Part shown: positions 14,323 through 41,191 of the stretch, piece after piece
Position numbering within the stretch: position 1 is the stretch's first letter
Layout: the number at the start of each line of letters is the position of its first letter
Source: Acidobacteriota bacterium
GTDB taxonomy: Bacteria > Acidobacteriota > UBA6911
Direction of reading: 5' to 3'
Assembly: GCA_049511215.1 (NCBI GenBank)
Contig: JBEKYG010000001.1
Coordinates: 1-41,200, forward strand
Length of the DNA stretch: 41,200 nucleotides
Program-made: the position numbers and the translations under genes
The notes under the pieces: generated by a model
Seen by the model: only the letters and a program-made list of their open reading frames with translations
Told to the model about the DNA's origin: nothing
The model's database searches: none

Positions 14323-14550
14323 CGAAATCTCCTTTCCTGGTCCAAGATATAAGACGTTTACCAGCCACAGAGGGGGTCGTTGTGCGCGGCGCATTCGTTG
14401 CCCATTGCGCACTGTGATGGTCGCGCTTGGAACTACCGCACCGCTCTGATCTTTCACGGTGCCGCCGACTCAGCCGGTCTCCTGCTGCGCCACCAAACTG
14501 CCGGGCAGCAGTAACACCACGGCCAGTGCCACCAAACCACGGTGCGTCAT
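14323..14550 (-). pseudogene. Degenerate N-terminal remnant of another TonB-dependent receptor
   Basis: The minus strand from ATG 14550 reads MTHRGLVALAVVLLLPGSLVAQQETG*VGGTVKDQSGAVVPSATITVRNG.. This is a signal peptide plus the start of a CarboxypepD_reg domain, with an in-frame TGA at 14470-14472. The similarity then decays. Confidence 0.4.
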
Positions 14551-22797: not shown

Positions 22798-23932
22798 AAA
22801 AACACCCGCGCCGCAACCTGCAAGAGTGGTTTGACTACGAGATCCAAAACCTTGCCACCGTGCTGCGTCCGACGACCATCGAGCTGTATCAGCTTGCAGC
22901 AAAATCCTTTCTGTCCTACCTTCATGCTCAGTGGCCGAATGTCCGCGGACCCTCGCACTTGCGCCGTGATCCCCATATCCTCGGCTGGCTCCGCAGCCTG
23001 TGTCAACGACAGCCGCCGCTGGCGAACAAAACCCGTACGGAAAGGATCATCAATGTTCGCCGCCTGATCCGCGATCTGGAGACAAGCAGCGATCCGCCCC
23101 GCGAAAATTTTTCGCCCCTGGAGATTGCCCCGCTCCTGACAGGTACCTTCCTAAACCGCTATCCCCGGAAGACGACCGGCGGCTGCAACAACGACTTCTC
23201 GAGAGACCGACTTTGCGTTCGAAAGCCCTATGGATTCTCAGAGCAACTGGAATGCGCATCGGCGAATGCCGCATGCTTACGGTTGATTCCTTGCGCGACC
23301 TGGGGCAGGACCAGTGGGCTGTGCGCGTTCCCTTGGGAAAACTCCATACCGAAAGATGGGTTCCGGTCGATGACGATACCCGCAGGATCTTTAACAGCAT
23401 TCTTGATCAGAGGCCTTCGAACCCAGACATGCGGGACACCCGGAACCCCGGGTTTTTGCTGCTGCAGAAAAACGGCAAGCCTCCTTCCTATATGTCCATG
23501 AGAGAAGAACTCATCATTGCGGCCCACGAGGCGGGGTGCTCTGTCCAACCTACGCTGCACCAGATGCGGCATACCTTTGCAACAGAAATGCTCAGAGCCG
23601 GAGCGAGTTTGCCTGCTGTCAAGGCACTACTGGGACACCAAACGCTGGAAATGACCATGCGCTATGTTCAGGTCAGCCAAGTCGATCTGCAACGCGAATA
23701 CCACCGAGCCCGAGCCAAAATGGCAGAAATCCATGCCGCCCCTGGACTGCCTAAGACACTTGCGCCCGATCTGACGAGCCTGCACGGGCTGCTCACTGAG
23801 GCTGCCCACGTGATGGAAATGTATCGACGTCAGATCAGCGACGTGAAAAAGAATCGTCACTTGGCACGACTCGTCAATCGCATAGCCAAAATTTTAGCCG
23901 AGTTCAAACTTGCTCAAGGAAGTACAAAATAA
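22794..23932 (+). pseudogene. Tyrosine recombinase B, frameshifted in an A4T5 run
   Basis: The N-terminal frame (MKKHPRRNLQEWF...RLIRDLETSSDPPRE) switches frame near 23104-23112 to ..DRYLPKPLSPEDDRRL...ATGMRIGE..HQMRHTFA..LLGHQTLEMTMRY. The start overlaps the recombinase A stop (ATGA). Confidence 0.75.
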
Positions 23933-27600: not shown

Positions 27601-27802
27601 TGTAATCACCGCGCTCGTCGGTCGGAGCCGTCCGTTGAGCATTGGTTCCCGTATTGGTGATTGTGATCATCGTGCCCGGCATGACTCCGCCGGAGCTGTC
27701 TTTGACCGTTCCGGTGATCGAGCCTGTCTGTGCCCAGACTGTCGAAACCGAAAACAAACAAACGAAAATACCTAGCAGACCAAAATTCCGAAGAGTTCCC
27801 AT
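24641..27802 (-). CDS. TonB-dependent receptor with a CarboxypepD_reg-like N-terminal domain (intact)
   Basis: About 1050 aa. Signal peptide MGTLRNFGLLGIFVCLFSVSTVWAQ, then TGSITGTVKDSSGGVMPG.., a plug region and a long barrel ending ..QFGLKISY. GGAGG lies upstream of the ATG at 27802. Confidence 0.9.
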   Translation of the reverse strand: MGTLRNFGLLGIFVCLFSVSTVWAQTGSITGTVKDSSGGVMPGTMITITNTGTNAQRTAPTDERGDYTIALLPVGVYKIQAGCSGFKTGLADNIMLNVNDKLRIDFTLQVGGNNEQVTVTDAAPLVQSETSSVGQVLDNQKILELPLNGRQFESLSQLVPGAVSPAPGSSLSARGGFNASGGRETQNSFMLDGINNNDPATNNWAVRPIVDAIQEFKVVENSYSAEFGRSGASQVTVTTKSGTNSFHGAAWEFLRNDVLDARDFFNTTGPKAPFLRNQYGATFGGPIRHDKTFFFVAYEGLNRKQSFTSLQQVPSLAFLQGDFSSVKTALKNPFGAGGATFTGNQISPTLFNPVSQKVIAMGAWPQPTPGLTGASNLQATLAQVENVSSINGRIDHRLSNANTLFARYSLTHDLLHQPCPSAAQVPTCVPGYGMLDTTNSQALSLTDTHVFSSKLLNEVRAGFNRFLEPRVALTAATNNIGGTLGLPTNPFPMAWGMPTFSISSTGTIGDMPWSPRVGNTYQISEGVSFSKGSHWMRAGFEWRKQEFNATQATREGFTFDGRWTGNAFADFELGLPASTSRDLLAADIRYHRIYSYAGYFQDDWKASNRLTVNLGLRYEFNTPDVEKYNRYADFNIQTGQYQTAGLNGASRALYDPDRNNWGPRVGFAFRPGDSSKSVFRGGYGIFYDLVMLGNDLDPTRKGYPFDKPETYSSTPGNPNALTLSNPFPASQSSTTIYNAPGVDPRFRDAYIQQWNFGYQLEFAKNMVFEAGYIGTKGTRLTRAIDLNQAFPGTTGSVQSRRPFPQYGTISMLTSIGDSTYNALVGGLERRFSGGLSLLASYTYSHSIDSGAGGGGVTQDARNTQPDRGNSDFDARQRLVISYVYDLPVGHDRHFGKSLPPVLNYVVGGWQLSGITAFQSGRPIFIKLGKDNGSTGVNNDRPNIVAGVDPLLENSGSKTVYLNPAAFVSAPAGTFGNDPRNNINGPGTNNFDLTLAKNFKTEKFGIQFRAELFNAFNHPFLNQPVSTLTNPAFGTITSTLGPNRQVQFGLKISY

Positions 27803-28150
27803 GGTTGCCTCCGTTTTGAGCAGGCCTGGACACGGCAAGGAGATGCGAAATCGCCGGCTCCTCTGAGATCATCCAGCTGCGACCTCGCATTGAACAACAT
27901 ATTCCATGCAATTTTACATGCACGTTAAAACAAGCAGCTGGAGGCGCGCTCAGGGCGCGGCAGAGTCGCCGAAGAGGTAACCGTCCGCGCGGGGAAAAAT
28001 CCCGATCCACCTGCACCGTCCGTGCTTGGGTTCTAGTGCCCTCAATGTTGCCAACTGTAAGCCCGAGTTCTTCCGCATGTCCAATGAAACTTTTTTATGG
28101 TAACGATAAACGCGCATGCCGTCGGGGAGAAAGGCAAAGGCAACTGTCAA

Positions 28151-28227: not shown

Positions 28228-29460
28228 CTAAATCACACCATCCCTCTTCAGTTGATGAACGGCTTCTTTGGAATAACCCAGCAAGCTGCAATAAATCTCT
28301 TCATTGTGTGCGCCGAGATATGGGGCGGGGAGGTCGAACTCCCCCTTGGACTCGGAGAGTTTGACAGGGATATCGTGGCCGACAGCGCCTTTCACCTTCC
28401 CGAGTTCTGGGTGAATCAGGTCGACAATCATGCCCCGGTGCTTCAACTGGGGATCCGCAAGAACTTCCGGAATCGTGGCCACGATCCCACTGGCCACTCC
28501 ATGTTTCCTGACGATTTCAACCACTTCCGCCTTTGCCTTGGTAACCGTCCAGCTCTCGATGATCGAGTCCACGGCATCGGCATTCATCATTCTCTGATCA
28601 AGTCTCTTGAACCGGGCGTCGTCCACCAGATCTTCGCGGCCCATGGCCTTCAGCAGGTTCGTCCAGTGGCTATCGGCGGCACTGCAGATCACCACATATC
28701 CGTCTTTGGCCTTGTGCGAATTGAATGGAGTCAGCCGCAATCGGCGGTTGCCGGTGCGAATCGGGATTCCCCTCTCCACATAGACATCGAGTGACTCATC
28801 GAAAAGAAAGGAGAAAAGACTGTCCATCATGGAGATATCAACAGCCTGCCCCCTGCCGGTCTTCTCGCGATAACGAAGTGCCGCTTGAAGGCCAATAACC
28901 ATGTAAAGAGCAGAGACCAAGTCCCCGGCAGCCACGCCCATCCGCACGGGCGGGTTCTCCGGGTATCCGGTCACCTCCATAACGCCGCTCATGCCCTCGA
29001 CCACAGGATCGAATGCCGCGAGACTGCGATAGGGTCCATCCTGCCCGAAGCCTGAAATAGAACAGAGGATGATGTCGGATTTGATTTTCTTTAATTCCGG
29101 ATAACCAAACCCCAGCCGCTCCATGGTTCCGGGCGCGAAATTCTCCGCGACAATATCAACCTTCTTCACCAACTCCCGGCAGAGTCGTTTGCCGGTTTCG
29201 TTTTGCAGGTTCAGGGTGATGCTCTTCCTGCCTCGCGCGCGCTTGAGAATGCACAATGAAAGGTCCCGGGGATCTTTCTTTTCAAATACGATTCCCTCCG
29301 GCCCATAATAGGGGCCGTTGGCGCGCACGGCATCTCCCCCATCAACCTTTTCCACTTTGATCACCTCAGCCCCAAGGTAAGCCGCGATCTCCATGGCATA
29401 AGGACCCGAAAGCCAAGCGGTCAAATCCAGGATGCGAACATTCTCCAGTGGCCTTTTCAT
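28228..29460 (-). CDS. Family III CoA-transferase (CaiB/BaiF type)
   Basis: Reads MKRPLENVRILDLTAWLSGPYAMEIAAYLGAEVIKVE..., the typical CoA_transf_3 N-terminus. GGGAGGG lies upstream of the ATG at 29460. Confidence 0.9.
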   Translation of the reverse strand: MKRPLENVRILDLTAWLSGPYAMEIAAYLGAEVIKVEKVDGGDAVRANGPYYGPEGIVFEKKDPRDLSLCILKRARGRKSITLNLQNETGKRLCRELVKKVDIVAENFAPGTMERLGFGYPELKKIKSDIILCSISGFGQDGPYRSLAAFDPVVEGMSGVMEVTGYPENPPVRMGVAAGDLVSALYMVIGLQAALRYREKTGRGQAVDISMMDSLFSFLFDESLDVYVERGIPIRTGNRRLRLTPFNSHKAKDGYVVICSAADSHWTNLLKAMGREDLVDDARFKRLDQRMMNADAVDSIIESWTVTKAKAEVVEIVRKHGVASGIVATIPEVLADPQLKHRGMIVDLIHPELGKVKGAVGHDIPVKLSESKGEFDLPAPYLGAHNEEIYCSLLGYSKEAVHQLKRDGVI

Positions 29461-29516
29461 CCTGCCCTCCCTAAGCGTCATAACCGACAATTGAAATTTC
29501 CGAACCTTGACGAATC

Positions 29517-30659
29517 CTAAAACCCCGACTCGCGAGCGATGACCAGGTGGTGGATTTCGGATGTCCCTTCGGTGATGGTGAAGAGTCTTCCATCCCTCCA
29601 ATAGCGCTGGACCGGATATTCCATCATGTACCCGTAGCCGCCGTGAATCTGCATGGCTTGCGCCAAAATCTCCTCCAGGGTTTCCGCGCAGAAAAGCTTG
29701 ACCATGGAGGCCTCTCTGGCCACCTTGCGCCCGGCGTCGTAGAGCCGCGCCACTCGATAGGTGTATGACCTCATGATGTCGCTCTTCATGGCCATTTCGG
29801 CGAGCTTGAAGCGCGTGACCTGGAACTCGACAATCGGCCGCCCGAACTGGACGCGGCTTTGTGCATACTGCAGGCTGGCTTCGTACGCAGCCTGAGCCAC
29901 ACCCGTGCAGCGGCCGCCGTAAGTGATTCTTCCGGAAGTTAGCGTGTCCAGAATCTGGCTGAATCCGCGGCCTTCCTGGCCTCCAACGAGACGCGCCGCG
30001 GGCACGCGGCAGGCTTCAAAGAGCAGCTCCCCGGTTTCAGCGGACCGGTTTCCCACTTTGTCGAGTTTTCGGGTGACGGCGAAACCGGGAGTGCCCTTCT
30101 CCACTACGAAGAGACAAACGCCCTCTGCCTTGCGCGCCGGATCCACAGTGGCTGCGACGACGGCATAGTCACAGATCGGACCATTGGTAATGAATGTCTT
30201 TGACCCATTGAGGACGTAGTGATCGCCGTCCTTGGTCGCCCGGGTTTTGATGCTGGCCGCGTCCGACCCCACATCCGGCTCGGTCAAAGCGAACGCGCCG
30301 ATTTTCTCCCCCTTAATTGCCGGAAGAAGAAACTCCTGCTTGAGCTCATCGGAACCGAACCGATAGATGGGATTCGTAGCCAGGCCCCCCTGGACCATGA
30401 GTCCGGCGGCGATTCCCGCGCAAATGCGGTTGAGCTCCTCGGCGAGAATGCATTCGGCTATTTTGTCCGCACCCCCTCCACCCATCTCCAGGGGATACCG
30501 GATGCAGAGGAGACCCAATTCACCCATCTTGCGGAAAAGTTGGATGGGGAACTTGCCCGACGCTTCCGCCTGCTCGACGAGCGGCGCAACTTCTTCTTCG
30601 GCAAAGCGCCTGGCGGTCTCTTTGATCATCTGCTGTTCTTCAGTCAGCTCGAAATCCAT
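29517..30659 (-). CDS. Acyl-CoA dehydrogenase
   Basis: 380 aa, MDFELTEEQQMIKETARRFAEEEV..., with the C-terminal TITEGTSEI motif typical of ACADs. Confidence 0.9.
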   Translation of the reverse strand: MDFELTEEQQMIKETARRFAEEEVAPLVEQAEASGKFPIQLFRKMGELGLLCIRYPLEMGGGGADKIAECILAEELNRICAGIAAGLMVQGGLATNPIYRFGSDELKQEFLLPAIKGEKIGAFALTEPDVGSDAASIKTRATKDGDHYVLNGSKTFITNGPICDYAVVAATVDPARKAEGVCLFVVEKGTPGFAVTRKLDKVGNRSAETGELLFEACRVPAARLVGGQEGRGFSQILDTLTSGRITYGGRCTGVAQAAYEASLQYAQSRVQFGRPIVEFQVTRFKLAEMAMKSDIMRSYTYRVARLYDAGRKVAREASMVKLFCAETLEEILAQAMQIHGGYGYMMEYPVQRYWRDGRLFTITEGTSEIHHLVIARESGF

Positions 30660-30671
30660 AGCGCTCTTCTC

Positions 30672-31940
30672 CTATTGATCGTTGCTTTCGACGATTGCGC
30701 AGATGCCTTGTCCTCCACCGCCGCAGACCGTTTCCAGTCCGTAGCGCGCACCGCGCCGTTTCATCTCATGAATCAAAGTCACCAGCCTCATGGCTCCCGT
30801 TGCCGCGATCGGATGGCCCAGGGAAATCCCGGAACCGTTGACGTTGATTTTTTTGTCGAAATCTTCCTGCCGGACCGCCATCAGCTTGGCATCGGCCAAG
30901 GTCTGCACCGCAAAAGCCTCCTGAATTTCAATCAGATCGATCTGGCCGATGGAGAGTCCGAGCTTCTTCACCGCCTTGTCTACAGAGGCGGGTACCGCCG
31001 GATAGGTAAGTGTCGGATCCGTGCCCGCGATGGCACAGGACCGGAAATATGCCATCGGCGCCACGCCGAGTTGCTTTGCCTTGGTTTCGGACATCAATAC
31101 CAGTGCGGCGGCGCCGTCGTTTTCACTGGAGGAATTTCCTGCCGTGCATATGCCGTCGGGATACACCGGAGGCAATTTGGCGAGTTTTTCCATGGTGGTG
31201 TCCCGCCGCGGGGTTTCGTCCAGAGCGAAAACCGCGGTCTCGCCTTTCTTTTTGGAGATGGCAATGGGAACAATTTCGTCGCTGAATTTCCCGGCATCAA
31301 TCGCGGCGATGGCTCTCAAATGGCTGCGCAATGCCCATTCATCCGCTTCCTGGCGGGATATCTGTTCCTTTTTCGCCGCGGTTTCCGCCCAGGTCATCAT
31401 GGAAGGAAGCTCGCCAAACCTCGCGATCGGCTGAGACATCACCCGAGCCCGCTGGATCCTGTCATAGAGGGGCACTCCCCACATCGAGAGTGCGCCATGA
31501 CCTTTCGGCATGAATCCCCATTTGTCGTCCTTCTTTCCGCCCAAGCCCCATTTGATATCGCCGGGGAAATAGAGCTCCGCCTGGCTCATACTCTCGATTC
31601 CACCCGCGACAATAATGTCGGCATTGCCGGTTTGAATCTTCATGACACTGAAGAAAACGGCGTCCAAACCCGAGCAGCAACGGCGATTCAGCGTCACGCC
31701 GGGGACCTCGGCCGGCCATCCGGCATCGAGAAGCGACATGCGCGCCCCATTCGCGCATTCGCCGTTCTGATAGGCCTGCCCCATAATCACATCATCAACC
31801 CAGGCGGGCGCAACCTTGGCTCTCTTCACCGCTTCATTCAGGACTACACTTCCCAGCCGGTACGCCGGGAAATCCCGCAGCGCTCCACCATATCCTCCAA
31901 TGGGCGTCCTCACACCTGCGACAATTACGACAGTCTCCAT
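30672..31940 (-). CDS. Acetyl-CoA C-acyltransferase (thiolase I/II type)
   Basis: Reads METVVIVAGVRTPIGGYGG.., with active-site blocks NRRCCSGL, NGSGISLGHP and CGGGGQG. Confidence 0.9.
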   Translation of the reverse strand: METVVIVAGVRTPIGGYGGALRDFPAYRLGSVVLNEAVKRAKVAPAWVDDVIMGQAYQNGECANGARMSLLDAGWPAEVPGVTLNRRCCSGLDAVFFSVMKIQTGNADIIVAGGIESMSQAELYFPGDIKWGLGGKKDDKWGFMPKGHGALSMWGVPLYDRIQRARVMSQPIARFGELPSMMTWAETAAKKEQISRQEADEWALRSHLRAIAAIDAGKFSDEIVPIAISKKKGETAVFALDETPRRDTTMEKLAKLPPVYPDGICTAGNSSSENDGAAALVLMSETKAKQLGVAPMAYFRSCAIAGTDPTLTYPAVPASVDKAVKKLGLSIGQIDLIEIQEAFAVQTLADAKLMAVRQEDFDKKINVNGSGISLGHPIAATGAMRLVTLIHEMKRRGARYGLETVCGGGGQGICAIVESNDQ

Positions 31941-31977
31941 CCAAACACCTTCCTTTCGGGCTCCGTCACGGCCGCCG

Positions 31978-32757
31978 CTAGTGGTTTGCAAAAGTCGGCT
32001 TTCTTTTCTCGAGGAAGGCGGTCACTCCCTCCATGAAATCTTTGGTTCTGTAAACCTCGCCGTATAGCTCTGAATCCTTCCGCAACGACTCGAGGAAGGA
32101 ATTTTGCGCCGCCAGGAACATCGATCTTTTGGCAATGTGGATCGCCGCCGGCCCTTTAGCAATGAGTCCGGCCAGCGCCATGACTTCTTCCATCAGTTTT
32201 TCGTGGGGGACCACACGGTCGACCAGGCCGATTTTCTCGGCTTCCTGAGCCTTGAGAACCTTCCCGGTGAAGATCATCTCCTTGGCTCGGCCGGCTCCGA
32301 CCAGCCTCATGAGACGGACATTGCCTCCATATCCGGGCATGATCCCGATTCGAACTTCCGTCTGGCCAATCTGCGCGCGGTCGCCGGCGATCCGGATGTC
32401 GCAAGCCAGCGCGAGCTCGCAACCGCCGCCTAGCGCCCAGCCGTTGATGGCGGCGATCACGGGCTCATCCATCGATTCCATAAAGAGGAGGATTTCATTG
32501 ACTTTCTTCGAGGCATCGATGGCATCCTGCGGGGTCCGGTCCTTGAGCATGCGCACGTCCGCACCCGCAATAAAAGCATCATCTCCGGCACCGGTGATTA
32601 TGCCCACACGCACGGCCGGATCGGCGTGCAGCCGCTTCAGTACATCCTCGAACTCCATCCAGGTCTCCCAGTTGAGGACATTCCTCACCTCGGGGCGGTT
32701 GACCTTAATGACCCCCACTCCTCCGTTGATCTCGTAAATCAGGTTTTTGTATGACAA
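31978..32757 (-). CDS. Enoyl-CoA hydratase/isomerase (crotonase family)
   Basis: 259 aa: ..VIKVNRPEVRNVLN...ITGAGDDAFIAGADV...INGWALGGGCELALACD.. Confidence 0.9.
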   Translation of the reverse strand: MSYKNLIYEINGGVGVIKVNRPEVRNVLNWETWMEFEDVLKRLHADPAVRVGIITGAGDDAFIAGADVRMLKDRTPQDAIDASKKVNEILLFMESMDEPVIAAINGWALGGGCELALACDIRIAGDRAQIGQTEVRIGIMPGYGGNVRLMRLVGAGRAKEMIFTGKVLKAQEAEKIGLVDRVVPHEKLMEEVMALAGLIAKGPAAIHIAKRSMFLAAQNSFLESLRKDSELYGEVYRTKDFMEGVTAFLEKRKPTFANH

Positions 32758-32784
32758 AGCTTTTCCCCCCAGGTTGGATCGCGG

Positions 32785-33660
32785 TCACTTCGCTTTTGCG
32801 CTGGCTTCCTGCTTGTACTCGTACCAGCCGCGTCCTGTCTTGCGGCCCAATTCCCTCGCTCTGACCTTGCGTCTAAGGAGTTGAGGCGGGTAGTAGCGCA
32901 GGTCCTGGCTTTCCTGGTAAATGGCCGTCAGCGCTCCACAGGAAACATCCAGCCCTACGAGGTCTCCGGTCTCAAAAGGACCCATCTTCCTGCCGAAGGC
33001 CAGCCTGACCCCTTTGTCGATGTCCTCCACCGTTCCGATCCCCTGCTCTAGCAGACGGATGGCCTCGACGTAGCTCACGAGGTTGATCCGATTGAGGAGA
33101 AAGCCGGGGACGTCGCTCTCAACCCGCACAGGTTCCTTTCCCACTCTCTTGACGAAACTCAGCGCCGTCTGCATGGTCTGCTCGGAGGTCTTGATTCCTC
33201 GAATGACCTCTACCACCTCCATCATAGGCACCGGATTGAAAAAGTGGAGTCCGAGCACCTTTTCCGGACGCCTGGTGACGCACGCAAGCTCGGTAATAGG
33301 GATGGCGGAAGTATTGCTGGCAATCAGCGTGTCGGGACCGCACATCTCGTCGAGTTTTTTGAAGATCTCCTGTTTTACCTCGAGTCTCTCGAACACGGCT
33401 TCGATCGCAAGGTCCGCATCCACGGGCGGAGCGAACTCGGTGCCGGCCTGAATCCGCCCCATCACGGTTTCGAGACTCTCGGCCAGTTTGCCTTTTTCAA
33501 TGAATTTCTTAACCGACCAGGCAATGCTCTTCAGGGCCTGATCCAGGCTTTCGCGGTTGATGTCATTTAGGAAGACCTGGATGCCGGCCTGGGCGCAAAC
33601 CTGGGCGATTCCGTTCCCCATCGTTCCGGATCCGACCACAAAGACCTTCTGGATAGCCAT
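32785..33660 (-). CDS. 3-hydroxyacyl-CoA (3-hydroxybutyryl-CoA) dehydrogenase
   Basis: Rossmann N-terminus KVFVVGSGTMGNGIAQV, followed by the 3HCDH N- and C-domain layout. Confidence 0.9.
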   Translation of the reverse strand: MAIQKVFVVGSGTMGNGIAQVCAQAGIQVFLNDINRESLDQALKSIAWSVKKFIEKGKLAESLETVMGRIQAGTEFAPPVDADLAIEAVFERLEVKQEIFKKLDEMCGPDTLIASNTSAIPITELACVTRRPEKVLGLHFFNPVPMMEVVEVIRGIKTSEQTMQTALSFVKRVGKEPVRVESDVPGFLLNRINLVSYVEAIRLLEQGIGTVEDIDKGVRLAFGRKMGPFETGDLVGLDVSCGALTAIYQESQDLRYYPPQLLRRKVRARELGRKTGRGWYEYKQEASAKAK

Positions 33661-33904: not shown

Positions 33905-34085
33905 AAGCCCCGAAGGGGCGGGGCAGAAAAGCCCAGGGCGTGAGCCCTGGGATCATGAATATCCAGGAGACAAGCCCTATAAGGGCGAAGCAGCCTGCGC
34001 TGCCCTTACAGGGCTGGTTCCGTGCTCGCCGTCATTTCCCAGGGCTTGCGCCCTGGGCTTTCCTGCGGGATCCTTTCAGGGTCCT
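33905..34085. repeat. REPIN-like imperfect palindrome of about 180 bp made of nested hairpins
   Basis: cccagggc-gtga-gccctggg (33932-33951) and cccagggc-ttgc-gccctggg (34038-34057) are inverted copies with flanking similarity. Inner hairpins are gccctataagggc / gcccttacagggc, and the centre is gcagcctgcgctgc. Confidence 0.7.
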
Positions 34086-34100
34086 AATCGGATTCCTTGA

Positions 34101-35324
34101 TTAAACGCCATTCATGACTGTCCCCAATATCGCGAGGGCGAGCGGGCGCGCAAGCCTGGAGGCATCAGCCCTTGAGTATGTGGACGGCGACGATTGCCGT
34201 TTCCCCAGCCACATTGCCCCCCCGTTTTCCACGAGCCCGATATCGGGGGCAGGTTTGATCTGCCGATCTCCGGCCTCTCCTCGCATCTGCCAGACGATTT
34301 CAGCCACCTGAGCCAGACCCGTCGCGCCCGCGGGGTGCCCTTTGGCGCTCAATCCTCCGGAAGGATTCACGGGCAGCTTGCCGCCCAGCCAGGTCACGCC
34401 CTCGTCGATCATGCGGCCGCTTTCACCCGGGCCGCAGAGCCCCAGTTCTTCGTACAAAAACAGCTCGACCGGAGCCACGGCATCATGGACTTCCGCGACC
34501 TGCACATCCCCGGCGGTGATGCCCGCTTCCTTATAGGTTTGCGCCGAAACGCGCACAACGATGCCGGGCTCATCCTTCCCGGTGAAGCCGAAACTGCCCA
34601 ATGCGGTCGCGCCGATCTTGACCGGCCTCTTCCCCATTCGCAAAGCCATCTCCTTGGTTCCGACGAGGACTGCCGATCCGCCGTCTCCCATTGGACAGGT
34701 CATCAGGAGGGTTATCGGGTCGGCAATCATCCGGGACTTGAGCACCTCCTCGACCGTGACGCGGTTGCGATATTGGGCGTGAGGGTTCAAGGCGCCATTG
34801 TCGTGGTTCTTGACCGCAACCTTGGCGAACTGTTCGCGCGTCAGACCATACTTTTGCATGTGCCCGCGGACGCGCATCGAATAGATGCCGGCGAACAGAA
34901 TTCCCATTCGCCCTTCGATATCGATATCAGAGGAGGTGGAAAGCGCCTTCAAGCTCTTACCGATGTCATCGCAGAAAAGCTTCTCCACACCCAGGGCCAA
35001 AGCTAAATCCGCCTGTCCCGACGCGACCGCCATGTTCGCCAGATAAAACGCCGTTGAACTGGAAGCGCACGCGTTCTCGACATTGATGATGGGTATCCTG
35101 TTGATGCCGACGTCCCTCAGTATGACCTGCCCCCGAACCGACTCCTGACCTGTGATCATGCCCGCGTAGGCATTGCCGACGAAGGCAATATCAATGTCGT
35201 GAGGATCAATTTTCGATTCGTGGATTACATTCCAAACAGGCTCGTAGGCCAGATCTTTCAATGTCTTGTCGAGGAGTTTCCCGAAGCGGGTCATGGAAAC
35301 TCCGAGCACATAGGTGTCTCTCAA
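34101..35324 (-). CDS. SCP-x-type thiolase-like protein (DUF35 partner), with the 3' end shifted by a G7 homopolymer
   Basis: Reads MRDTYVLGVSMTRFGK.., active-site NVENACASSS, GHPAGATG. After ..LVENGG the annotated frame gives an atypical 41-aa tail. Adding one G to the run at 34217-34223 gives ENGGGNVAGETAIVAVHILKG* with the stop at 34165-34167. Confidence 0.8.
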   Translation of the reverse strand: MRDTYVLGVSMTRFGKLLDKTLKDLAYEPVWNVIHESKIDPHDIDIAFVGNAYAGMITGQESVRGQVILRDVGINRIPIINVENACASSSTAFYLANMAVASGQADLALALGVEKLFCDDIGKSLKALSTSSDIDIEGRMGILFAGIYSMRVRGHMQKYGLTREQFAKVAVKNHDNGALNPHAQYRNRVTVEEVLKSRMIADPITLLMTCPMGDGGSAVLVGTKEMALRMGKRPVKIGATALGSFGFTGKDEPGIVVRVSAQTYKEAGITAGDVQVAEVHDAVAPVELFLYEELGLCGPGESGRMIDEGVTWLGGKLPVNPSGGLSAKGHPAGATGLAQVAEIVWQMRGEAGDRQIKPAPDIGLVENGGAMWLGKRQSSPSTYSRADASRLARPLALAILGTVMNGV

Positions 35325-35396
35325 TCTAACCTCCTACTTGGCCTAAGGGAATCTCTCCCGAAACTCGCTGGTTATATCGAAAAACCGAATGAGCAG

Positions 35397-35524
35397 CTTG
35401 GACCTCGACGTGGACCTCGACGTGGACCTGGACGGTCTTGTTCGAGGTAAACTTTCCAGACATAACATTTATCAGATCGCCATTTATCCGTGCATGCCCA
35501 CGTCCAAGTCCAAGTCCAGGACGG
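35397..35524. repeat. Composite palindromic element with tandem 12-mers (GGACCTCGACGT x2 + GGACCTGGACGG) opposite tandem hexamers (GTCCAA GTCCAA GTCCAG)
   Basis: Tandem units lie at 35400-35435, and the complementary arm cccacgtccaagtccaagtccaggacgg at 35497-35524. Confidence 0.55.
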
Positions 35525-35535
35525 AGGGTTAGGTA

Positions 35536-35549
35536 GTTTCGCGACAGAA
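35536..35549 (-). promoter_or_regulatory. Conserved 14-nt motif (minus strand TTCTGTCGCGAAAC) one nucleotide after a TAG stop, copy 1
   Basis: Identical 14-mer to 39499-39512. On the minus strand it follows the stop of the B12/DUF35 gene after a single nucleotide. Confidence 0.4.
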
Positions 35550-35550
35550 C

Positions 35551-36357
35551 CTAAGCTACCGGTCGAAATCGATAACCGAGGATTGCCCGGTCATCCTTGT
35601 CCCTGCCGACCCTGATGGCTTTCATGATCATTCGGCAGCCGATGCTCAGGCTGGAGCCGTCGCCATAATCAGTGAGCAATGAGAAAATCCGCGGCCCTCC
35701 CCCGCATATGTCGATGTAACCTTGGGCGTGAGGAATGCTGTATCCCGGGGGAGCTATACTGGCGATCGAATAGGTCTGCAGGATTCCCTCGTCACTCAGT
35801 GTCAACTCTTTTGTGAACTGATCGTCGAGACATCGAGGGCAGTTTTTTCTCGTTGGGAAAAAGATCCGTCCGCATCGTTCGCATCGGGTCCCCATCAGGT
35901 GAAGCTCCTCGGGGCTTCTGCCGGCCAGCGTTCCGGGGACCTCCAGAACCCAGGATCGCGCCTTCACGATATACTGGACGATCTGTTTGACATCCGAACC
36001 TGGAGGAAAGATCGCGCCGACGCCCAGTGCGCGAAGCGCCTCATAATCTTCCTCCGGGATCACGCCTCCCATGATCACGGGGATATCGGCGGCCTTCTGG
36101 GCTTCCAGTTCTTTCCGGACTTTTTTCATAACTTCCACGTGAGCGCCAACCATGGAAGAGATGCCAATGACGTCGACGTCTTCCTGGACCGCTATTCTGG
36201 CCACCGTGGCTGGGGTTTGCCGGATTCCGGTATAAACCACCTCCATGCCCGCATCCCGCAGCCCCTGAGCCACCACCTGCGCCCCCCGGCTGTGCCCGTC
36301 CAGGCCGATCTTGGCGATCAACACCCGCGGCGCCCTTTGCGATTCCGTCATAACCAT
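35551..36357 (-). CDS. Fusion protein: B12-binding (mutase small-subunit) domain + DUF35 zinc-ribbon/OB-fold domain
   Basis: The N-terminal half has KIGLDGHSRG (DxHxxG), IGISSMVGAH and VIMGGVIP. The C-terminal half has CERCGRIFFPTRKNCPRC followed by an OB-fold-like segment ..GILQTYSIA...GYIDI... Start ATGs at 36357 and 36351 overlap the mutase stop. Confidence 0.8.
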   Translation of the reverse strand: MVMTESQRAPRVLIAKIGLDGHSRGAQVVAQGLRDAGMEVVYTGIRQTPATVARIAVQEDVDVIGISSMVGAHVEVMKKVRKELEAQKAADIPVIMGGVIPEEDYEALRALGVGAIFPPGSDVKQIVQYIVKARSWVLEVPGTLAGRSPEELHLMGTRCERCGRIFFPTRKNCPRCLDDQFTKELTLSDEGILQTYSIASIAPPGYSIPHAQGYIDICGGGPRIFSLLTDYGDGSSLSIGCRMIMKAIRVGRDKDDRAILGYRFRPVA

Positions 36358-38006
36358 GTGACACCTTCCTGATGAACACCCCACACTTGGGCCAGAACCC
36401 GGCACATCTCCCCGATCGTGGCATAGGCGCGAGCGCACTCGACCAGTGCAGGCACCGTGTTCTTGCCGGCTCGCGCCTCACTTTCCAATTGGCTGAGAGA
36501 GTTGTTCACCTTTTCATGATCGCGGCTCGATTTGAGTTGCTGAAGCTTTTGAATTGCCCGCTCCTGGACGCCTTTCGGGACCTTGAATGATTCGATCTTG
36601 ATTCGTTCGTTTTCCTCTTTGAACTTGTTGAGCCCGACGATGACTCGCTCTCCTCTTTCAATCTCCTGCTGGTATTCGCCGGCGGCTTTGCGCATGAGCA
36701 TTTGATAGAAGCCGCCTTCGATGGCCCTCTGGGCGCCGCCTTTCCCGTCAATTTCCTCCATCAATTTCAGCGCCCTGGCTTCGATTTCGTTCGTCAAGGA
36801 TTCGATGTAGTAGGAACCGCCCAGAGGATCGACGGCATCGGCGATCCCGGTCTCATTGGCCAGGATGTGCTGGGTCATCAGTGCCACGTGAGCGGCTTCC
36901 GCCGTCGGAATGGAGAGCACTTCATCCATGGCATTGGCCGAGAGGCTTTGGGCGCCGCCTAAAATGGCAGCCAGCGCCTCAAGAGCAACCCGCACGATAT
37001 TATTGAGGGGCTGCTGCGCGGTCATGGTATAGCCGGTGGTATACACTCGGATGAAGCACTTCAGGCTCTCCTGCTTTTTGGGGTGGTAGCGGCTCTCGAG
37101 CAGGCGGGCCCACATCCGGCGAAACGCCCGATACTTGGCAATTTCCTCGAACAGGTTCATGGGAACCGCGAGCTGGCACTCCATCAGGGGGGCGAAATCG
37201 TCAATGTCCAGGCCCCGGCCGATCGCTTCATCTATATATGCCTTGGCATTCGACAGGGTGAACGCGACTTCCTGCACGGCCGTGGCGCCTCCCTGTCCCA
37301 TATGGGAACCGCACACAACGATGGGCTTGAAGTGCGGGTGCTTGCAGGTGCAGTATTCGACGGCATCGATGGAGAATCTCAACGAGGGGTTGGGAGGATA
37401 GATATAGGTTCCTCTCGCCACGAATTCTTTCAATATGTCGTTTTGCAGGACAACGGTGAATTGGCTTGGTTCGAGTCCTTGTTTCTCGCCCAACGCGATG
37501 AACAGGGCGAGCATGATCGGTCCGATGGCGTTAGCGGTGGTGAAGATCTGCTTGGATTTGTTGAGCGGGATGCCGGCAAAGATGTCCTCCATATCCTGCA
37601 AGGAATTGATGGCCACGCCGGCCTTGCCGACTTCGCCGTCGGCGAGTTCATGATCCGATTCCAGTCCTAGTTGCGTCGGCAGGTCCAAAGCCACAGCCAG
37701 CGCAGTTTGGCCCTTGGAGAGAAGATATTTGAATCTTTCGTTGGTGGCTTCGGGGTTTCCAAAACCGGAATACTGCCCCATGATCCAGAAGCCGCCGCGG
37801 TACATCGAAGGATAAATCCCGCGGGTATACGGGAAGGCGCCGGGCAATCCCAGATCTTTTTCATGGTCAAATCCCGATTTCAGGAGGCTGTCGTGATCAT
37901 ACAGATCGGCGAGCGGGATTTTGGAATCCAAACAAAAAAGTTGCTTTCTGCGTCCCCTGGCTTTCTGATCCTGGGCCAGCAGGTTCCGCCATTCCTCAGC
38001 ATTCAT
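36348..38006 (-). CDS. B12-dependent acyl-CoA mutase, large (substrate-binding TIM-barrel) subunit, methylmalonyl-CoA-mutase family
   Basis: 552 aa: ..PGAFPYTRGIYPSMYRGGFWIMGQYSGFG..., ..LQNDILKEFVARGTYIYPP.. It retains the Tyr and Arg positions that bind a substrate carboxylate in MCM-type enzymes. Confidence 0.9.
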   Translation of the reverse strand: MNAEEWRNLLAQDQKARGRRKQLFCLDSKIPLADLYDHDSLLKSGFDHEKDLGLPGAFPYTRGIYPSMYRGGFWIMGQYSGFGNPEATNERFKYLLSKGQTALAVALDLPTQLGLESDHELADGEVGKAGVAINSLQDMEDIFAGIPLNKSKQIFTTANAIGPIMLALFIALGEKQGLEPSQFTVVLQNDILKEFVARGTYIYPPNPSLRFSIDAVEYCTCKHPHFKPIVVCGSHMGQGGATAVQEVAFTLSNAKAYIDEAIGRGLDIDDFAPLMECQLAVPMNLFEEIAKYRAFRRMWARLLESRYHPKKQESLKCFIRVYTTGYTMTAQQPLNNIVRVALEALAAILGGAQSLSANAMDEVLSIPTAEAAHVALMTQHILANETGIADAVDPLGGSYYIESLTNEIEARALKLMEEIDGKGGAQRAIEGGFYQMLMRKAAGEYQQEIERGERVIVGLNKFKEENERIKIESFKVPKGVQERAIQKLQQLKSSRDHEKVNNSLSQLESEARAGKNTVPALVECARAYATIGEMCRVLAQVWGVHQEGVTWL

Positions 38007-39412
38007 TTTGTCATCCCTCCCAGCACCTGAGCTGCCCCGGTCATGACCTGGAACAGAGATTCGGCCGAATCCGTCATGTCCGAGACTTCGAGCATGTTTT
38101 CAACCCGATCCATACTGCGCCGGGACAGTGTATCGCCGGCAGCCTGGCGAAATGTTTCTCGCGTCATCGAAACCGGCAGGGGACTTTCCGGTTCGCCCAA
38201 CGCGTAGTTCACTTCGCCGCTGTGAACGATCTCGTCGAGGCAGTGGACTTCGACGATGGCTCCCCTCTGATTCGGATAGAGACGCTCCACCTCTGGATCC
38301 ACGCGGACATGCACCCTTTTCATGAGATCAAGAATTCTCCGGTCCGTAAAATGCCGCTCGTCAAACGCATCCCAGTCGCACCTGCCCAGAACAATCCTGG
38401 CGGCGAGCGCGTAAGGAATGTTGAAATAAGCATCTCCACGCTGCTTCAGTGAATCGATCTCGGACTCCACTGCGACCTTGTAGGTCCGCACATCGATTCG
38501 TGCCACCTGTGAAGGTTCGAGCTTGGTCTTTTGCAAAATGCCGGCCAGCGCGTCTATGGATGGATGGACATGCCGGCAGCCGGGATAAGGCTTCAGATAG
38601 CTGCCTCGAATGGCATATCCATGTTCAAGAGCTTTATCCACAGGCACGAGCGGTTGTTCCGCAAGGTAAGCAGGATAAAAAGCATCCTCGATGATGGACA
38701 GGTAGCCTGAATGGTCGCACCCGCCCATCATTGCGGCCGCCAGACCGCTTCGTACGGACCAGGCCACCTGAAGCGGTTGGGTGGTGCCGTTTCTGAAGGA
38801 ATGCATCAGGCCGGAGCCGCCCATGGCGGCAAGACAAAGGGCATTTTGTGTCCTCTGCGTGTCGTAGCCCAATAGCAATGACGCGGTAGCCGCGGCCCCA
38901 AAGGGCGCGCCAATGGCAGTGGGATGGAAGCCTCGACGGGTAAATCCAGGATTGCCGCTCCGGCTTATTCGAACCATCACATCATATCCGGCGATGGCCG
39001 CTCTATCGATGTCCAGCCAGCTCCTTCCCTCGGCCAGGGCAAGTATCGTCGGAACAACCGCGGCTGCCGGATGGCATGCCCCTTCCCTGGACCCGTCTTC
39101 GAAGACCGAGGCGTGGATAGCAAAGGACCAAACCATGGCGGCATCGAGCGAATGAACGCGTTCGGGACCGCCGCCAGGCCAGCCGCGCCCCCCAGGTACA
39201 CTGGCGCAGAGTTTGGTCAAATCATCGAATACCTTCGTCCGGCGGCCGATGAACGACGCGGCGGACGCATCCAGCATGTGCTGCCGGACGAGCGCACGGT
39301 CCTCGATGGAGGGTTGCGAGGCTCCAATCTCGTGCACGAGCTCCGCCAGATAGCGCGATATGAGTACTTCCGATTTGGCAGACACAGCACGATCCTTTGC
39401 TCGGCGCCACAT
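38003..39412 (-). CDS. MmgE/PrpD-family protein (2-methylcitrate-dehydratase-like)
   Basis: About 470 aa with PrpD-like layout (..ASFIGRRT.., ..HPSIDA.., ..YLKPYPGCRH..). The start is uncertain (ATG 39412, or GTG 39385 preceded by AAAGGA). Confidence 0.8.
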   Translation of the reverse strand: MWRRAKDRAVSAKSEVLISRYLAELVHEIGASQPSIEDRALVRQHMLDASAASFIGRRTKVFDDLTKLCASVPGGRGWPGGGPERVHSLDAAMVWSFAIHASVFEDGSREGACHPAAAVVPTILALAEGRSWLDIDRAAIAGYDVMVRISRSGNPGFTRRGFHPTAIGAPFGAAATASLLLGYDTQRTQNALCLAAMGGSGLMHSFRNGTTQPLQVAWSVRSGLAAAMMGGCDHSGYLSIIEDAFYPAYLAEQPLVPVDKALEHGYAIRGSYLKPYPGCRHVHPSIDALAGILQKTKLEPSQVARIDVRTYKVAVESEIDSLKQRGDAYFNIPYALAARIVLGRCDWDAFDERHFTDRRILDLMKRVHVRVDPEVERLYPNQRGAIVEVHCLDEIVHSGEVNYALGEPESPLPVSMTRETFRQAAGDTLSRRSMDRVENMLEVSDMTDSAESLFQVMTGAAQVLGGMTK

Positions 39413-39498
39413 CTTGGAATGCCGGGGAGCTTCATGCAAAGCAGAGCAAGCCCGCACACCCCAGGACACGTCGCGCGATCCGGCTGTCGTCTAAACGA

Positions 39499-39513: not shown

Positions 39514-40194
39514 CTATTGCAGCACGGCGGAAAAGATATATTCCCTGCCCACGCGGATGTGTTCCTTGACGACTTGAATGGCTTTCTTCACGTCCTTCAA
39601 ACGTATGGCGTTGAATATGTCCTCGTGTTCCTTCACAACCTCTTTTGCGCGCCCGGCAGGCAGACCCTCAATGCGGTGGCGGAGGAATATCCGCTGATAG
39701 ATCTCTCGGAAATACTCAGCCAGGTATGGATTGTCGGCCATCAGAATATAACTGGCATGGAATTCCTGATCGAGGGTGAATCTTCCCCTGCTCACGTTGT
39801 CCACGACGGACTTCTCATAAAGGCTCTTCTGCCTTTTAAGGCGTTCCAGTTTTTCGGGATTGACCTTTTGAATCGCCCTCTCGATGGCACCGACCTCGAC
39901 GATTTCCCTTAGCTCATAGAGGGCACTCGCCTCCTGACGCGTAATCTGATGGACCGTGTATCCCTGGTTGGGAACGAAGTCCAGGAAGCCCTCGTTCGCC
40001 AGAATGCTCAGGGCATTGTTCACCGGAGTCCGGCTTACTCCCAGCCGCTTGGCCAGGTCCACAAAAATCAGCCTCTGCCCAGGGACAATATCGTAGTTCA
40101 ACATCATCTCCCTGATCTTTCCGTAGGCCATCTGGGTCAGATTCTTGTTCCGTTCAACAACGGCTTCCGGTTTTGCTTTTTTTTGGTCAGCCAC
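39514..40194 (-). CDS. GntR-family transcriptional regulator (FadR/FCD subfamily)
   Basis: The N-terminal winged HTH is ..AYGKIREMMLNYDIVPGQRLIFVDLAKRLGVSRTPVNNALSILANEGF.., followed by an all-helical C-terminal domain. Confidence 0.9.
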   Translation of the reverse strand: MADQKKAKPEAVVERNKNLTQMAYGKIREMMLNYDIVPGQRLIFVDLAKRLGVSRTPVNNALSILANEGFLDFVPNQGYTVHQITRQEASALYELREIVEVGAIERAIQKVNPEKLERLKRQKSLYEKSVVDNVSRGRFTLDQEFHASYILMADNPYLAEYFREIYQRIFLRHRIEGLPAGRAKEVVKEHEDIFNAIRLKDVKKAIQVVKEHIRVGREYIFSAVLQ

Positions 40195-41191
40195 GTTGGC
40201 TTATCTCCTTCTGGTATTTTGTCGGAACCTTCACATTCAGCAGTTTTGCCAGGTTAAGACCCTGCATGTTGGCCCTGTCCTGTTCACTGATCGGAGGATA
40301 CCCCCACCCCTCCTGCAGCTCCTCCGGGATCTTGAGGTTCAAGACGGCCTTCACCGAAAGATCGGCCGGAGATGCCGGCCAATCCGTGCCGAAGACGATC
40401 CTTTCGCTTCCTCCCAACATGTTCATGATCGATCCTACCATGTGCGCGAGCTTCATGGGCGCATAGTACCATGGTCCTAACATTCCGCTCATGCCGATGT
40501 AAAGGTTTCGGTGCTTCCACGCCAGGGCGTTCAAAACGTCACTTTCGGGCCAGCCGAAATGGTAGGCAACGATCTTTAGCTCCGGAAACCTCAGGCAGAG
40601 ATTGTCCAGGAGAATGGGCTGGCAGTATTCCGAGTGTCCGCCCACTGCAAACCCGGTATGGATGAACACCGACACTCCCAACTCGAGGCATCTCTGATAA
40701 AACGGAAATAGATCCGGGTGATTGAAGGGCCCGGAATCCTCCGGCGAGTAGATTTTCGTGCATTTGAAGCCGTACTCCTGGTGGAGAATTTCCAGCTCCT
40801 TGATTGCGTTGCTGACGCCCCGAATGAGATGAGGGCCCACGTTGGAACAGCCGATGATCCGATCCGGATACTTCTGCATGGCCTCGATGGTGTGGTAGTT
40901 CGTTGAACACGGAACGGCATTGTAGGACATGTTCAAAAAGGATTCTCTCAGCATGCAGGCCATGTCGATGCCGGCATCGTCCATCGCCTTGATCATTCCC
41001 TCCGCTGTCCAGTCGGACGGCTTTGGCCGCCGCTCTTTTGTGATCGGATTCGTGTTCCACCATTTCCCGGTGGGGGATTCCTCCGGCTTGGAAAAGTAGG
41101 CCGTCGCCGGATAGTAGCTGATGTGCTTCCGAAACTCCCAAGGCATGACGTGCGCTTCACAATCGATGATGAAGAAGTCCTCTTTGTTCAT
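40187..41191 (-). CDS. Amidohydrolase_2-family protein (metal-dependent hydrolase/decarboxylase fold)
   Basis: 334 aa: MNKEDFFIIDCEAHV.. (metal-binding motif near the N-terminus), ..VFIHTG.., ..IVFGTDWP.. Confidence 0.8.
   Translation of the reverse strand: MNKEDFFIIDCEAHVMPWEFRKHISYYPATAYFSKPEESPTGKWWNTNPITKERRPKPSDWTAEGMIKAMDDAGIDMACMLRESFLNMSYNAVPCSTNYHTIEAMQKYPDRIIGCSNVGPHLIRGVSNAIKELEILHQEYGFKCTKIYSPEDSGPFNHPDLFPFYQRCLELGVSVFIHTGFAVGGHSEYCQPILLDNLCLRFPELKIVAYHFGWPESDVLNALAWKHRNLYIGMSGMLGPWYYAPMKLAHMVGSIMNMLGGSERIVFGTDWPASPADLSVKAVLNLKIPEELQEGWGYPPISEQDRANMQGLNLAKLLNVKVPTKYQKEISQRG

Follow-up and report, generated by a model that had tools for sequence, protein, structure and literature searches.

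In the steroid side-chain degradation systems ChsH1-ChsH2-Ltp2 (6OK1) and Shy-Sal (9MYR), DUF35 occurs as a domain fused to the MaoC-type hydratase that acts one step earlier, and it recruits the nearby-encoded thiolase-fold enzyme that cleaves the carbon–carbon bond, the aldolase Ltp2 or Sal, whose dimer is flanked by two DUF35 domains (PMC12329534). Here we describe a gene in which a DUF35 module is likewise fused to an enzyme of one step, in this case the predicted cobalamin (B12)-binding small subunit of an acyl-coenzyme A (CoA) mutase. The gene lies in a stretch of 41,200 nucleotides (nt) from an Acidobacteriota bacterium (assembly GCA_049511215.1, contig JBEKYG010000001.1, positions 1 to 41,200; hereafter called the window), where it is the fifth gene of a six-gene minus-strand cassette. 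The pathway and organisms also differ from those of the steroid systems. Moreover, Ltp2 and Sal are retro-aldolases without the thiolase nucleophile arrangement, whereas the thiolase encoded in the cassette keeps the cysteine and both histidines.

The archaeal complex of thiolase, 3-hydroxy-3-methylglutaryl-CoA (HMG-CoA) synthase (HMGS) and DUF35 includes the closest solved relatives of both the cassette thiolase (E 5e-66) and the fused DUF35 module (E 9e-13). In that complex, DUF35 is a scaffold that joins the thiolase to a second enzyme, and a fused HMGS-DUF35 protein is known from Pseudomonas (PMC12960953). In contrast, no HMG-CoA synthase-family match was found among the cassette proteins or their neighbours, the second enzyme is predicted to be a radical B12 mutase, and the surrounding genes (regulator, transporters, CoA ligase) speak of catabolism rather than mevalonate synthesis. 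A third relative is the benzoylsuccinyl-CoA thiolase BbsAB (7PXP), which cleaves an alpha-branched 3-oxoacyl-CoA to an acyl-CoA and succinyl-CoA. Its DUF35 protein, BbsA, stands alone beside the SCP-x-type thiolase BbsB, whereas the DUF35 module described here is fused to a mutase subunit. BbsB and the cassette thiolase both carry HDA in place of HDC. The cassette proteins nevertheless score far below the Bbs cut-offs (252.3 against 750 bits for BbsB, and 49.3 against 250 bits for BbsA, the only NCBIfam model matched by the C-terminal half of the fusion).

Among two-subunit acyl-CoA mutases, the closest small subunits are 2YXB (archaeal-type methylmalonyl-CoA mutase, MCM) and 4R3U (HcmAB), to which the B12 domain of the fusion is 48-57% identical. 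The IcmF, B12-MeaB and B12-epimerase fusions indicate that such small subunits tolerate C-terminal pathway partners. To our knowledge, neither a fusion to DUF35 nor a link to a thiolase has been reported for any mutase. Text searches of the literature turned up neither a B12-binding/DUF35 fusion nor a mutase–thiolase complex; the one paper found that mentions a B12 mutase together with a DUF35 protein concerns separate genes of an acetone cluster. An earlier note on this DNA had not recognised the architecture as described, which agrees with these searches, but the architecture is common in metagenomes and the theme of DUF35 fusion is known. The note's view of DUF35 as normally a separate protein applies to BbsA but not to ChsH2, Shy or HMGS-DUF35. 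The fusion is a new form of a known principle, whereby DUF35 fused to a pathway enzyme recruits a thiolase-fold partner.

The fusion gene and its homologues

The gene and its parts are as follows.

35551..36357, minus strand: fusion gene, 268 amino acids (aa), ATG at 36357 and stop at 35551-35553, B12-binding small subunit plus DUF35 module
35959..36357, minus strand: B12-binding domain, residues 1-133 (PF02310, TIGR00640, Foldseek matches to 2yxb and 4r3u)
35554..35952, minus strand: DUF35 module, residues 136-268, a zinc ribbon followed by an OB fold
35830-35883, minus strand: four-cysteine zinc ribbon (C159, C162, C173 and C176) inside the DUF35 module

A single unbroken open reading frame (ORF) encodes both domains. 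In the N-terminal half, Pfam recognizes B12-binding PF02310 at residues 11-123 (E 8e-27, 93.9 bits, cut-off 32.1), and the mutase C-terminal-domain model TIGR00640 scores 149.4 bits (E 5e-44, cut-off 57.45). A sequence search of the Protein Data Bank (PDB) matches residues 6-132 to the Aeropyrum mutase small subunit 2yxb (1e-40) and to HcmB (1e-31). The B12 motifs are D20-G-H22-S-R-G25, S67-S68-M69 and G97-G98, and the base-off/His-on motif residues are invariant across 57 aligned homologues. These family scores and motifs, along with the partner gene upstream, identify the N-terminal half as the putative cobalamin-binding small subunit of an acyl-CoA mutase.

The C-terminal half begins with zf-ChsH2 (PF12172, residues 150-181, E 5e-9, 36.2 bits, cut-off 23.2), whose four cysteines are likewise invariant in the homologue alignment. 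The following OB_ChsH2_C match (residues 187-243) is sub-threshold, at E 0.003 and 17.9 bits against a cut-off of 27.1. However, in the PDB search residues 150-267 align with 6esq_E, a DUF35 chain of archaeal origin (E 8.8e-13), as well as with BbsA (7pxp_A) and PhlB, and the modelled fold of this half resembles BbsA, so the presence of an OB fold is supported despite the weak Pfam score. Together with the zinc ribbon and a thiolase-fold partner gene nearby, this predicted fold assigns the C-terminal half to DUF35.

An AlphaFold model of the fusion built on the 57 homologues has a mean predicted local distance difference test score (pLDDT) of 86.4 and a predicted template-modelling (TM) score (pTM) of 0.57. 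In this model the B12 domain closes with a helix that reaches residue 133, and the first DUF35 strand begins at residue 136. Foldseek matches the modelled N-terminal half to the mutase small subunits 2yxb and 4r3u with target-normalised TM values of 0.85-0.92. The modelled C-terminal domain is all-beta; its best match is BbsA (target-normalised TM of about 0.8), and it also matches 6esq_E, PhlB, MucC-family chains (MucABC complex, PDB 9vbo/9vbt) and ChsH2-DUF35. Thus, Pfam, PDB search and modelled structure all agree with the earlier note's reading of one ORF that joins a B12-binding domain to DUF35, and every motif it quoted (LDGHSRG, ISSMVG, MGGVIP and CERCGRIFFPTRKNCPRC) is present in the sequence.

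We collected homologues of the fusion as the best 120 clusters from a search of 5.8 billion proteins. In all 120 the two domains form one continuous protein of 236-306 aa with 57-76% identity, and the signature motifs are retained almost throughout (CxxC...CxxC in 120/120, DxHxxG in 118/120). Invariant residues are present in both halves of the 57-homologue alignment, and a near-invariant W-x-x-E-V-P-G-x-L-x-G motif opens the DUF35 part. The linker consists of a few residues in most homologues, and insertions of roughly 30 aa stand just before W-x-x-E-V-P-G in a few. Furthermore, a contig from an independent assembly (run SRR13021855) encodes the identical 268-aa product, and no stop or frameshift was found near 35940-35960, where the earlier note had considered one. 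The fusion gene is therefore real and under selection, as demonstrated by at least 120 two-domain clusters, the invariant residues in both halves, the junction motif and the independent assembly. When the library was clustered at 50% identity, the family reduced to essentially one full-length representative; this near-total collapse suggests a single tight family that probably descends from one fusion event. Named organisms among the matches are Syntrophaceae and Pseudomonadota.

Split forms also exist. One contig (P0137/L092, 337-1150) offers a convincing case: two overlapping genes, one for a B12 subunit of 140 aa and one for a DUF35 protein of 134 aa, follow the gene for a large subunit of the fusion-linked mutase clade, and this DUF35 protein is 46% identical to the fused domain. 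A second locus (L160, 2436-3348) is either split or frameshifted. These versions could represent the ancestral state, a fission or a frameshift. A candidate stand-alone DUF35 protein of 55% identity (P0123) was not counted, because its ORF runs off a 588-bp contig and may be a truncated fusion. A genome scan with generic B12-domain peptides recovered ordinary small subunits only and no fusion. As a separate observation, other mutase small subunits (P0133, P0203, P0147, P0229 and P0174) carry different C-terminal partners, namely a glyoxalase-type (epimerase-like) domain, a MeaB GTPase fragment or a methyltransferase.

The partner enzymes and the conserved cassette

The remaining elements of the cassette, from its head to its end, are listed below.

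40187..41191, minus strand: amidohydrolase_2-family protein with an N-terminal D-C-E-A-H motif (Pfam), which leads the cassette in most neighbourhoods
39514..40194, minus strand: GntR/FCD transcription regulator (Pfam), conserved in the cassette
38003..39469, minus strand: MmgE/PrpD-family protein (Pfam), always directly upstream of the mutase large subunit
36348..38006, minus strand: acyl-CoA mutase large subunit, 552 aa (Pfam MM_CoA_mutase, E 1e-181)
35325..35550, minus strand: spacer of 226 nt between fusion and thiolase, with two short tandem repeats and without a terminator-like site
34101..35324, minus strand: SCP-x/BbsB-type thiolase, listed ORF of 407 aa, with Cys86 in a CAS motif, HDAV and GHP
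33932..33951, minus strand: terminator-like GC-rich hairpin with a T-rich tail, 3′ of the thiolase gene

The order is thus amidohydrolase_2, GntR/FCD regulator, MmgE/PrpD-family protein, mutase large subunit, fusion and SCP-x-type thiolase. The large subunit contains a complete MM_CoA_mutase domain, and the stop of its gene overlaps the fusion start by 10 nt, as the earlier note had read it. Its closest solved relatives are HcmA (6e-131) and the human and bacterial methylmalonyl-CoA mutases (2e-120). Compared with the P. shermanii MCM, it retains Tyr89 (Tyr79, in GQYSGF), Arg207 (in VARGTY) and His244. The Tyr89 and Arg207 equivalents are identical to those of 43 ordinary split mutases, a comparison set gathered by the genome scan with generic B12-domain peptides. 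In structures of MCM, isobutyryl-CoA mutase (ICM) and 2-hydroxyisobutyryl-CoA mutase (HCM), the free carboxylate is bound by Tyr89 and Arg207, neither of which is present in the isobutyryl- and hydroxyisobutyryl-CoA enzymes, where other residues take their place. Since, unlike ICM and HCM, the cassette enzyme keeps both residues, its substrate probably carries a carboxylate beside the rearranging carbons.

The large subunits linked to the fusion constitute a clade of their own, scoring 915-997 bits among themselves and at most 546 bits against the 43 ordinary split mutases. At positions at least 85% conserved in those 43, the clade has 28 fixed substitutions (8/8 clade members), which in MCM numbering include R87G, S114A, F117L, Y243S, E247Q, F287Q, H328R and Q330Y; HcmA retains the MCM residues at Y243, H328 and Q330. 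The equivalog model NF006944 gives 514.9 bits, below its cut-off of 876. With near-invariant active-site residues changed, the equivalog score below cut-off and no MeaB or epimerase gene nearby, the sequence indicates that the large subunit is no methylmalonyl-CoA mutase sensu stricto. The mutase most likely has a new substrate specificity.

The closest solved thiolases are that of the archaeal complex, which is an acetoacetyl-CoA thiolase, followed by BbsB (1e-65) and the SCP2-thiolases. Both C86-A-S and G329-H-P are invariant among the homologues. The HDxF position reads HDA[V/A], such that the histidine is kept, the cysteine of HDCF is replaced by alanine as in BbsB, and the phenylalanine is lost. 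Given the retained cysteine nucleophile, HDx histidine and GHP histidine, the enzyme looks active; in DUF35-associated thiolases the histidine of the HDx motif is reported to be essential for thiolysis (PMC12960953).

The copy in the window carries a −1 frameshift, where a G7 run is one base short (plus strand 34217-34223). Its product diverges from all homologues after ENGG, with the last 17 residues replaced by an unrelated tail of 38 aa, and the canonical C-terminus GGNVAGETAIVAVHILKG lies in the neighbouring frame with a stop at about 34165-34167. This frameshift may stem from misassembly of the homopolymer, or it may be genuine and make the gene a pseudogene. The earlier note had placed an SCP-x-type thiolase as the next gene downstream: Pfam, NCBIfam and PDB matches bear out the type, but the gene is not immediately adjacent, lying 226 nt away, and its 3′ end is frameshifted. 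A terminator-like site was sought in the spacer and none was found, and the ribosome-binding sequence GGAGG precedes the TTG start of the thiolase gene. The operon in the window likely ends at the hairpin 33932-33951. The spacer, which is unusually long for this family of loci, contains a 12-mer repeated three times (35399-35434) and a 6-mer repeated 3.5 times (35498-35518); the two repeats are mutually complementary and form a long imperfect hairpin with a minimum free energy of −76 kcal/mol (z = −2.0).

We compared the window with 8 distinct looked-up loci and with 19 more fusion loci from a pattern scan of metagenome contigs. The core order of PrpD-like gene, large subunit, fusion and thiolase holds in 8/8 looked-up neighbourhoods and in the window. 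Among the scan loci, the thiolase gene comes next after the fusion in all 14 that have enough sequence, the large subunit is upstream in every locus with upstream sequence, and a PrpD-like gene precedes the large subunit in 8/8 with sequence there. In most looked-up neighbourhoods the fusion start overlaps the large-subunit stop by 4 or 10 nt. The thiolase start lies between −4 and +70 nt from the fusion end in homologous loci, and once at +213 nt.

The regulator and amidohydrolase generally head the cassette, and in nearly all neighbourhoods the thiolase is followed by an AMP-forming acyl-CoA ligase or a family-III CoA-transferase. Other genes vary: a FadH/OYE-type flavoenzyme, an alpha/beta-hydrolase, an Amdase-family protein and uptake systems of the TRAP, MFS, ABC or TonB type, as well as, in contigs carrying dsr genes, a pyrogallol-transhydroxylase-like molybdenum (Mo) enzyme and sucCD. 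The Mo enzyme, FadH/OYE-like reductase, Amdase-family protein, alpha/beta-hydrolase and transporters were rejected as core genes because they vary between neighbourhoods. Collectively, the sequences indicate that the operon is conserved in Acidobacteriota, Syntrophaceae and the dsr-carrying contigs, and that it is widespread and uncharacterised in mostly uncultured bacteria.

Several searches for further components were negative. A hidden Markov model of the fused domain found no second DUF35 in the window or in six neighbourhoods of 16-21 kb, and therefore the thiolase has no other source of its usual partner nearby. No gene for a MeaB-type G-protein chaperone or an epimerase was seen in the window or in any neighbourhood of 12-21 kb, and no glycyl-radical (bss) or BbsCD genes were present in any neighbourhood. 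No reaction could be assigned from PDB relatives either, because those of the PrpD-like protein (IDS epimerase, cis-aconitate decarboxylase) and those of the amidohydrolase_2 protein (BB4693, ACMSD) are too distant. The listed ORF of the PrpD-like protein, which opens with GTG and has 488 aa, exceeds its homologues (453-462 aa) by about 30 aa, and translation probably begins at an internal codon downstream of that GTG.

Some accessory genes deserve separate mention. Two contigs (L001 15614-19052 and L004 15697-19120) encode the pyrogallol-transhydroxylase-like molybdopterin enzyme with an Fe-S/Ig-like beta subunit 3′ of the cassette, along with dsrC, dsrMK-like genes, a FadH/OYE-type flavoenzyme and either sucCD or a fumarate-reductase-like flavoprotein. 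Besides the dsr genes of L004-L006, the taxonomic placement draws on the two named matches (Syntrophaceae and Pseudomonadota) and on the LysS protein of the window, which shares 100% identity with a protein named as acidobacteriotal (Acidobacteriota). An Amdase-family gene lies beside or near the cassette CoA ligase in two others (L126 792-1574 and L087 17746-18528). The Amdase superfamily also includes maleate isomerases, and this neighbour hints at malonate- or maleate-type dicarboxylate intermediates.

Proposed tethering of the mutase to the thiolase and its alternatives

We favour, with a probability of roughly 0.6, a reading in which the fusion would tether a mutase of new specificity to its thiolase, such that rearrangement is followed by thiolytic cleavage. 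We infer physical coupling of the two enzymes from a gene order that is strict in more than 20 neighbourhoods and from the published behaviour of DUF35 (PMC12329534, PMC12960953): all solved DUF35 proteins, including the Foldseek matches above, sit in complex with a thiolase-like partner. This suggests an undescribed mutase–thiolase enzyme complex. Specifically, the N-terminal domain of the fusion would sit on the large subunit encoded upstream, and the DUF35 domain would clamp onto the thiolase dimer encoded downstream, with (large subunit)2(fusion)2(thiolase)2 as the likely assembly. Relatives in which mutase small subunits carry C-terminal pathway partners (B12-epimerase-type and B12-MeaB) favour this reading, as does the presence of split, overlapping B12 and DUF35 genes within the fusion-linked mutase clade. 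That the mutase would act before the thiolase is suggested by the steroid pathways, where the enzyme that carries the fused DUF35 acts one step earlier.

The specific chemistry that we propose for the cassette is tentative and rather doubtful. The operon would degrade an imported carboxylic acid, beginning with formation of its thioester by the ligase or by a succinyl-CoA-dependent CoA-transferase. The mutase would then shift the thioester carbon in a carboxylate-bearing acyl-CoA to give an alpha-branched 3-oxoacyl-CoA, for example of the 2-acylsuccinyl-CoA type, which the tethered thiolase would at once cleave into two acyl-CoAs. SCP-x/BbsB-type thiolases handle alpha-branched 3-oxoacyl-CoAs, and a thioester 1,2-shift in a carboxylated oxo-acyl-CoA would give just such a compound. 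The succinyl-CoA-type family-III CoA-transferases or sucCD found beside some cassettes hint at succinyl-CoA as a product. Itaconate/methylsuccinate, tricarballylate/aconitate, levulinate-type 4-oxo acids, alkylsuccinates and phenolic acids were considered as substrates; none fits all core genes, and no literature support was found for any of them.

Several observations weigh against the tethered mutase-then-thiolase model. The mutual orientation of the two domains is uncertain in the AlphaFold model, given the pTM of 0.57. A dehydrogenase to form the 3-oxo group is absent from most neighbourhoods, and therefore the chemistry requires that the oxo group is already in the substrate. The PrpD-like and amidohydrolase_2 proteins are unaccounted for by the steps proposed. 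No cassette protein reaches an NCBIfam equivalog cut-off, in a check that also covered the ligase, reductase, Mo enzyme, PrpD-like protein, amidohydrolase, CoA-transferase and dehydrogenases. Unless its frameshift is an assembly error, the thiolase copy in the window may be impaired, given also the 226-nt spacer. Furthermore, the published view of Shy-Sal is that tethering through DUF35 does not necessarily entail channelling of the substrate (PMC12329534).

This last point leads to an explanation that we consider somewhat unlikely, yet the strongest of the alternatives, in which the fusion brings no kinetic coupling. DUF35 would simply be an obligatory thiolase subunit that became joined to its neighbour by loss of a stop codon, and the two enzymes would share a pathway without passing intermediates directly. 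Consistent with this view, the overlapping genes of L092 and the split or frameshifted L160 suggest that fusion is not strictly required, 30-aa linker insertions occur in some family members, and the Shy-Sal authors argue against direct channelling. However, the fusion is retained in at least 120 diverged clusters from several phyla, the few-residue linker of most members keeps both enzymes close, and even under this explanation the mutase and thiolase would be physically joined.

Somewhat less likely still is the same complex working in the reverse order. A BbsAB-like thiolase would first release a succinyl-CoA-type product from a 2-acylsuccinyl-CoA, and the tethered mutase would then make a (substituted) methylmalonyl-CoA, as MCM does after beta-oxidation of benzylsuccinate. 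The retained Tyr89 and Arg207 equivalents, which could bind the free carboxylate of succinyl- or methylmalonyl-CoA, fit this order, as do the scores of the thiolase on the BbsB model and of the DUF35 domain on the BbsA model. The sucCD genes that adjoin the cassette in L004-L006 point the same way, as do the genes for a family-III CoA-transferase, acyl-CoA dehydrogenase, hydratase and hydroxyacyl-CoA dehydrogenase that adjoin it in the window with bbs-like logic. These beta-oxidation genes are not, however, conserved across the neighbourhoods. Moreover, the many changed near-invariant MCM positions make plain succinyl-CoA an unlikely substrate, and known DUF35 fusions involve the enzyme one step ahead of the thiolase-like enzyme (PMC12329534).

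A role of DUF35 apart from the thiolase, such as binding of CoA esters or nucleic acids, or cofactor loading in place of a MeaB-type chaperone, is very improbable. Generic binding is common to OB folds and zinc ribbons, and a MeaB gene is seen in no neighbourhood, but each solved DUF35 is bound to a thiolase-like protein, and wherever the neighbourhood has enough sequence, the fusion is followed by a thiolase gene without a DUF35 of its own. Finally, an assembly or annotation artefact that wrongly joined two genes near 35940-35960, of which other disrupted genes on the contig (the frameshifted thiolase 3′ end, a receptor gene interrupted by an in-frame TAA, and an integrase in two pieces) might be taken as a sign, is already refuted by the diverged homologues from many samples and by recurrence of the continuous ORF in the independent assembly.

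Other genes of the window and implications of the fusion

Below the cassette, the window contains the following features.

28228..33660, minus strand: five-gene unit, probably separate from the cassette (Pfam, NCBIfam)
32785-33660, minus strand: 3-hydroxyacyl-CoA dehydrogenase, five-gene unit
31978-32757, minus strand: enoyl-CoA hydratase, five-gene unit
30672-31991, minus strand: second thiolase, five-gene unit
29517-30659, minus strand: acyl-CoA dehydrogenase, five-gene unit
28228-29601, minus strand: family-III CoA-transferase, best match succinate-glutarate / succinyl-CoA:mesaconate type
24641..27838, minus strand: TonB-dependent-receptor-like barrel (CarboxypepD_reg and OMP_b-brl_4), a possible uptake component

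A second TonB-dependent-receptor-like gene of the same domain composition (10939-14457, minus strand; CarboxypepD_reg and OMP_b-brl_4) is split by an in-frame TAA at 13399-13401 in the context FFFVDF*GLRF, where a glutamate codon is expected. DnaG-like primase and tyrosine-recombinase genes are situated at 20765-23932, a few kilobases from the catabolic genes. Two ORFs make up one of the recombinases, a SAM-like N-terminal one (21766-22140) and a catalytic one (22177-22797). In another contig (L089, 174-3926) the cassette directly adjoins a primase-integrase pair. The idea of a mobile island is weak, since the GC content of the window is flat and the primases of the window and L089 are only 26% identical. 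Among housekeeping genes, a PIN-domain protein (1795-2214, minus strand) is possibly the toxin of a toxin–antitoxin pair.

As far as we know, the substrate specificities described for B12-dependent acyl-CoA mutases number only about six. Earlier specificities opened pathways such as propionate metabolism, the ethylmalonyl-CoA pathway and the degradation of tert-butyl compounds and acetone. It is a real possibility, although one to which we assign less than even odds, that a new specificity of an adenosylcobalamin mutase, hard-wired via DUF35 to a thiolase, constitutes a new and widespread route for a branched or oxo-substituted (di)carboxylic acid. For example, a carboxylated oxo-acyl-CoA would be rearranged to the 2-acylsuccinyl-CoA type and cleaved to an acyl-CoA and succinyl-CoA.

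If the tethering model is correct, a radical enzyme joins hydratases and HMG-CoA synthase among the partners that DUF35 docking serves. The three-protein set would allow a test of whether thiolysis pulls the mutase equilibrium. The distinct mutase clade with its reshaped active site, carried in one operon, points to an unrecognised catabolism of a carboxylic acid in soils and sediments.

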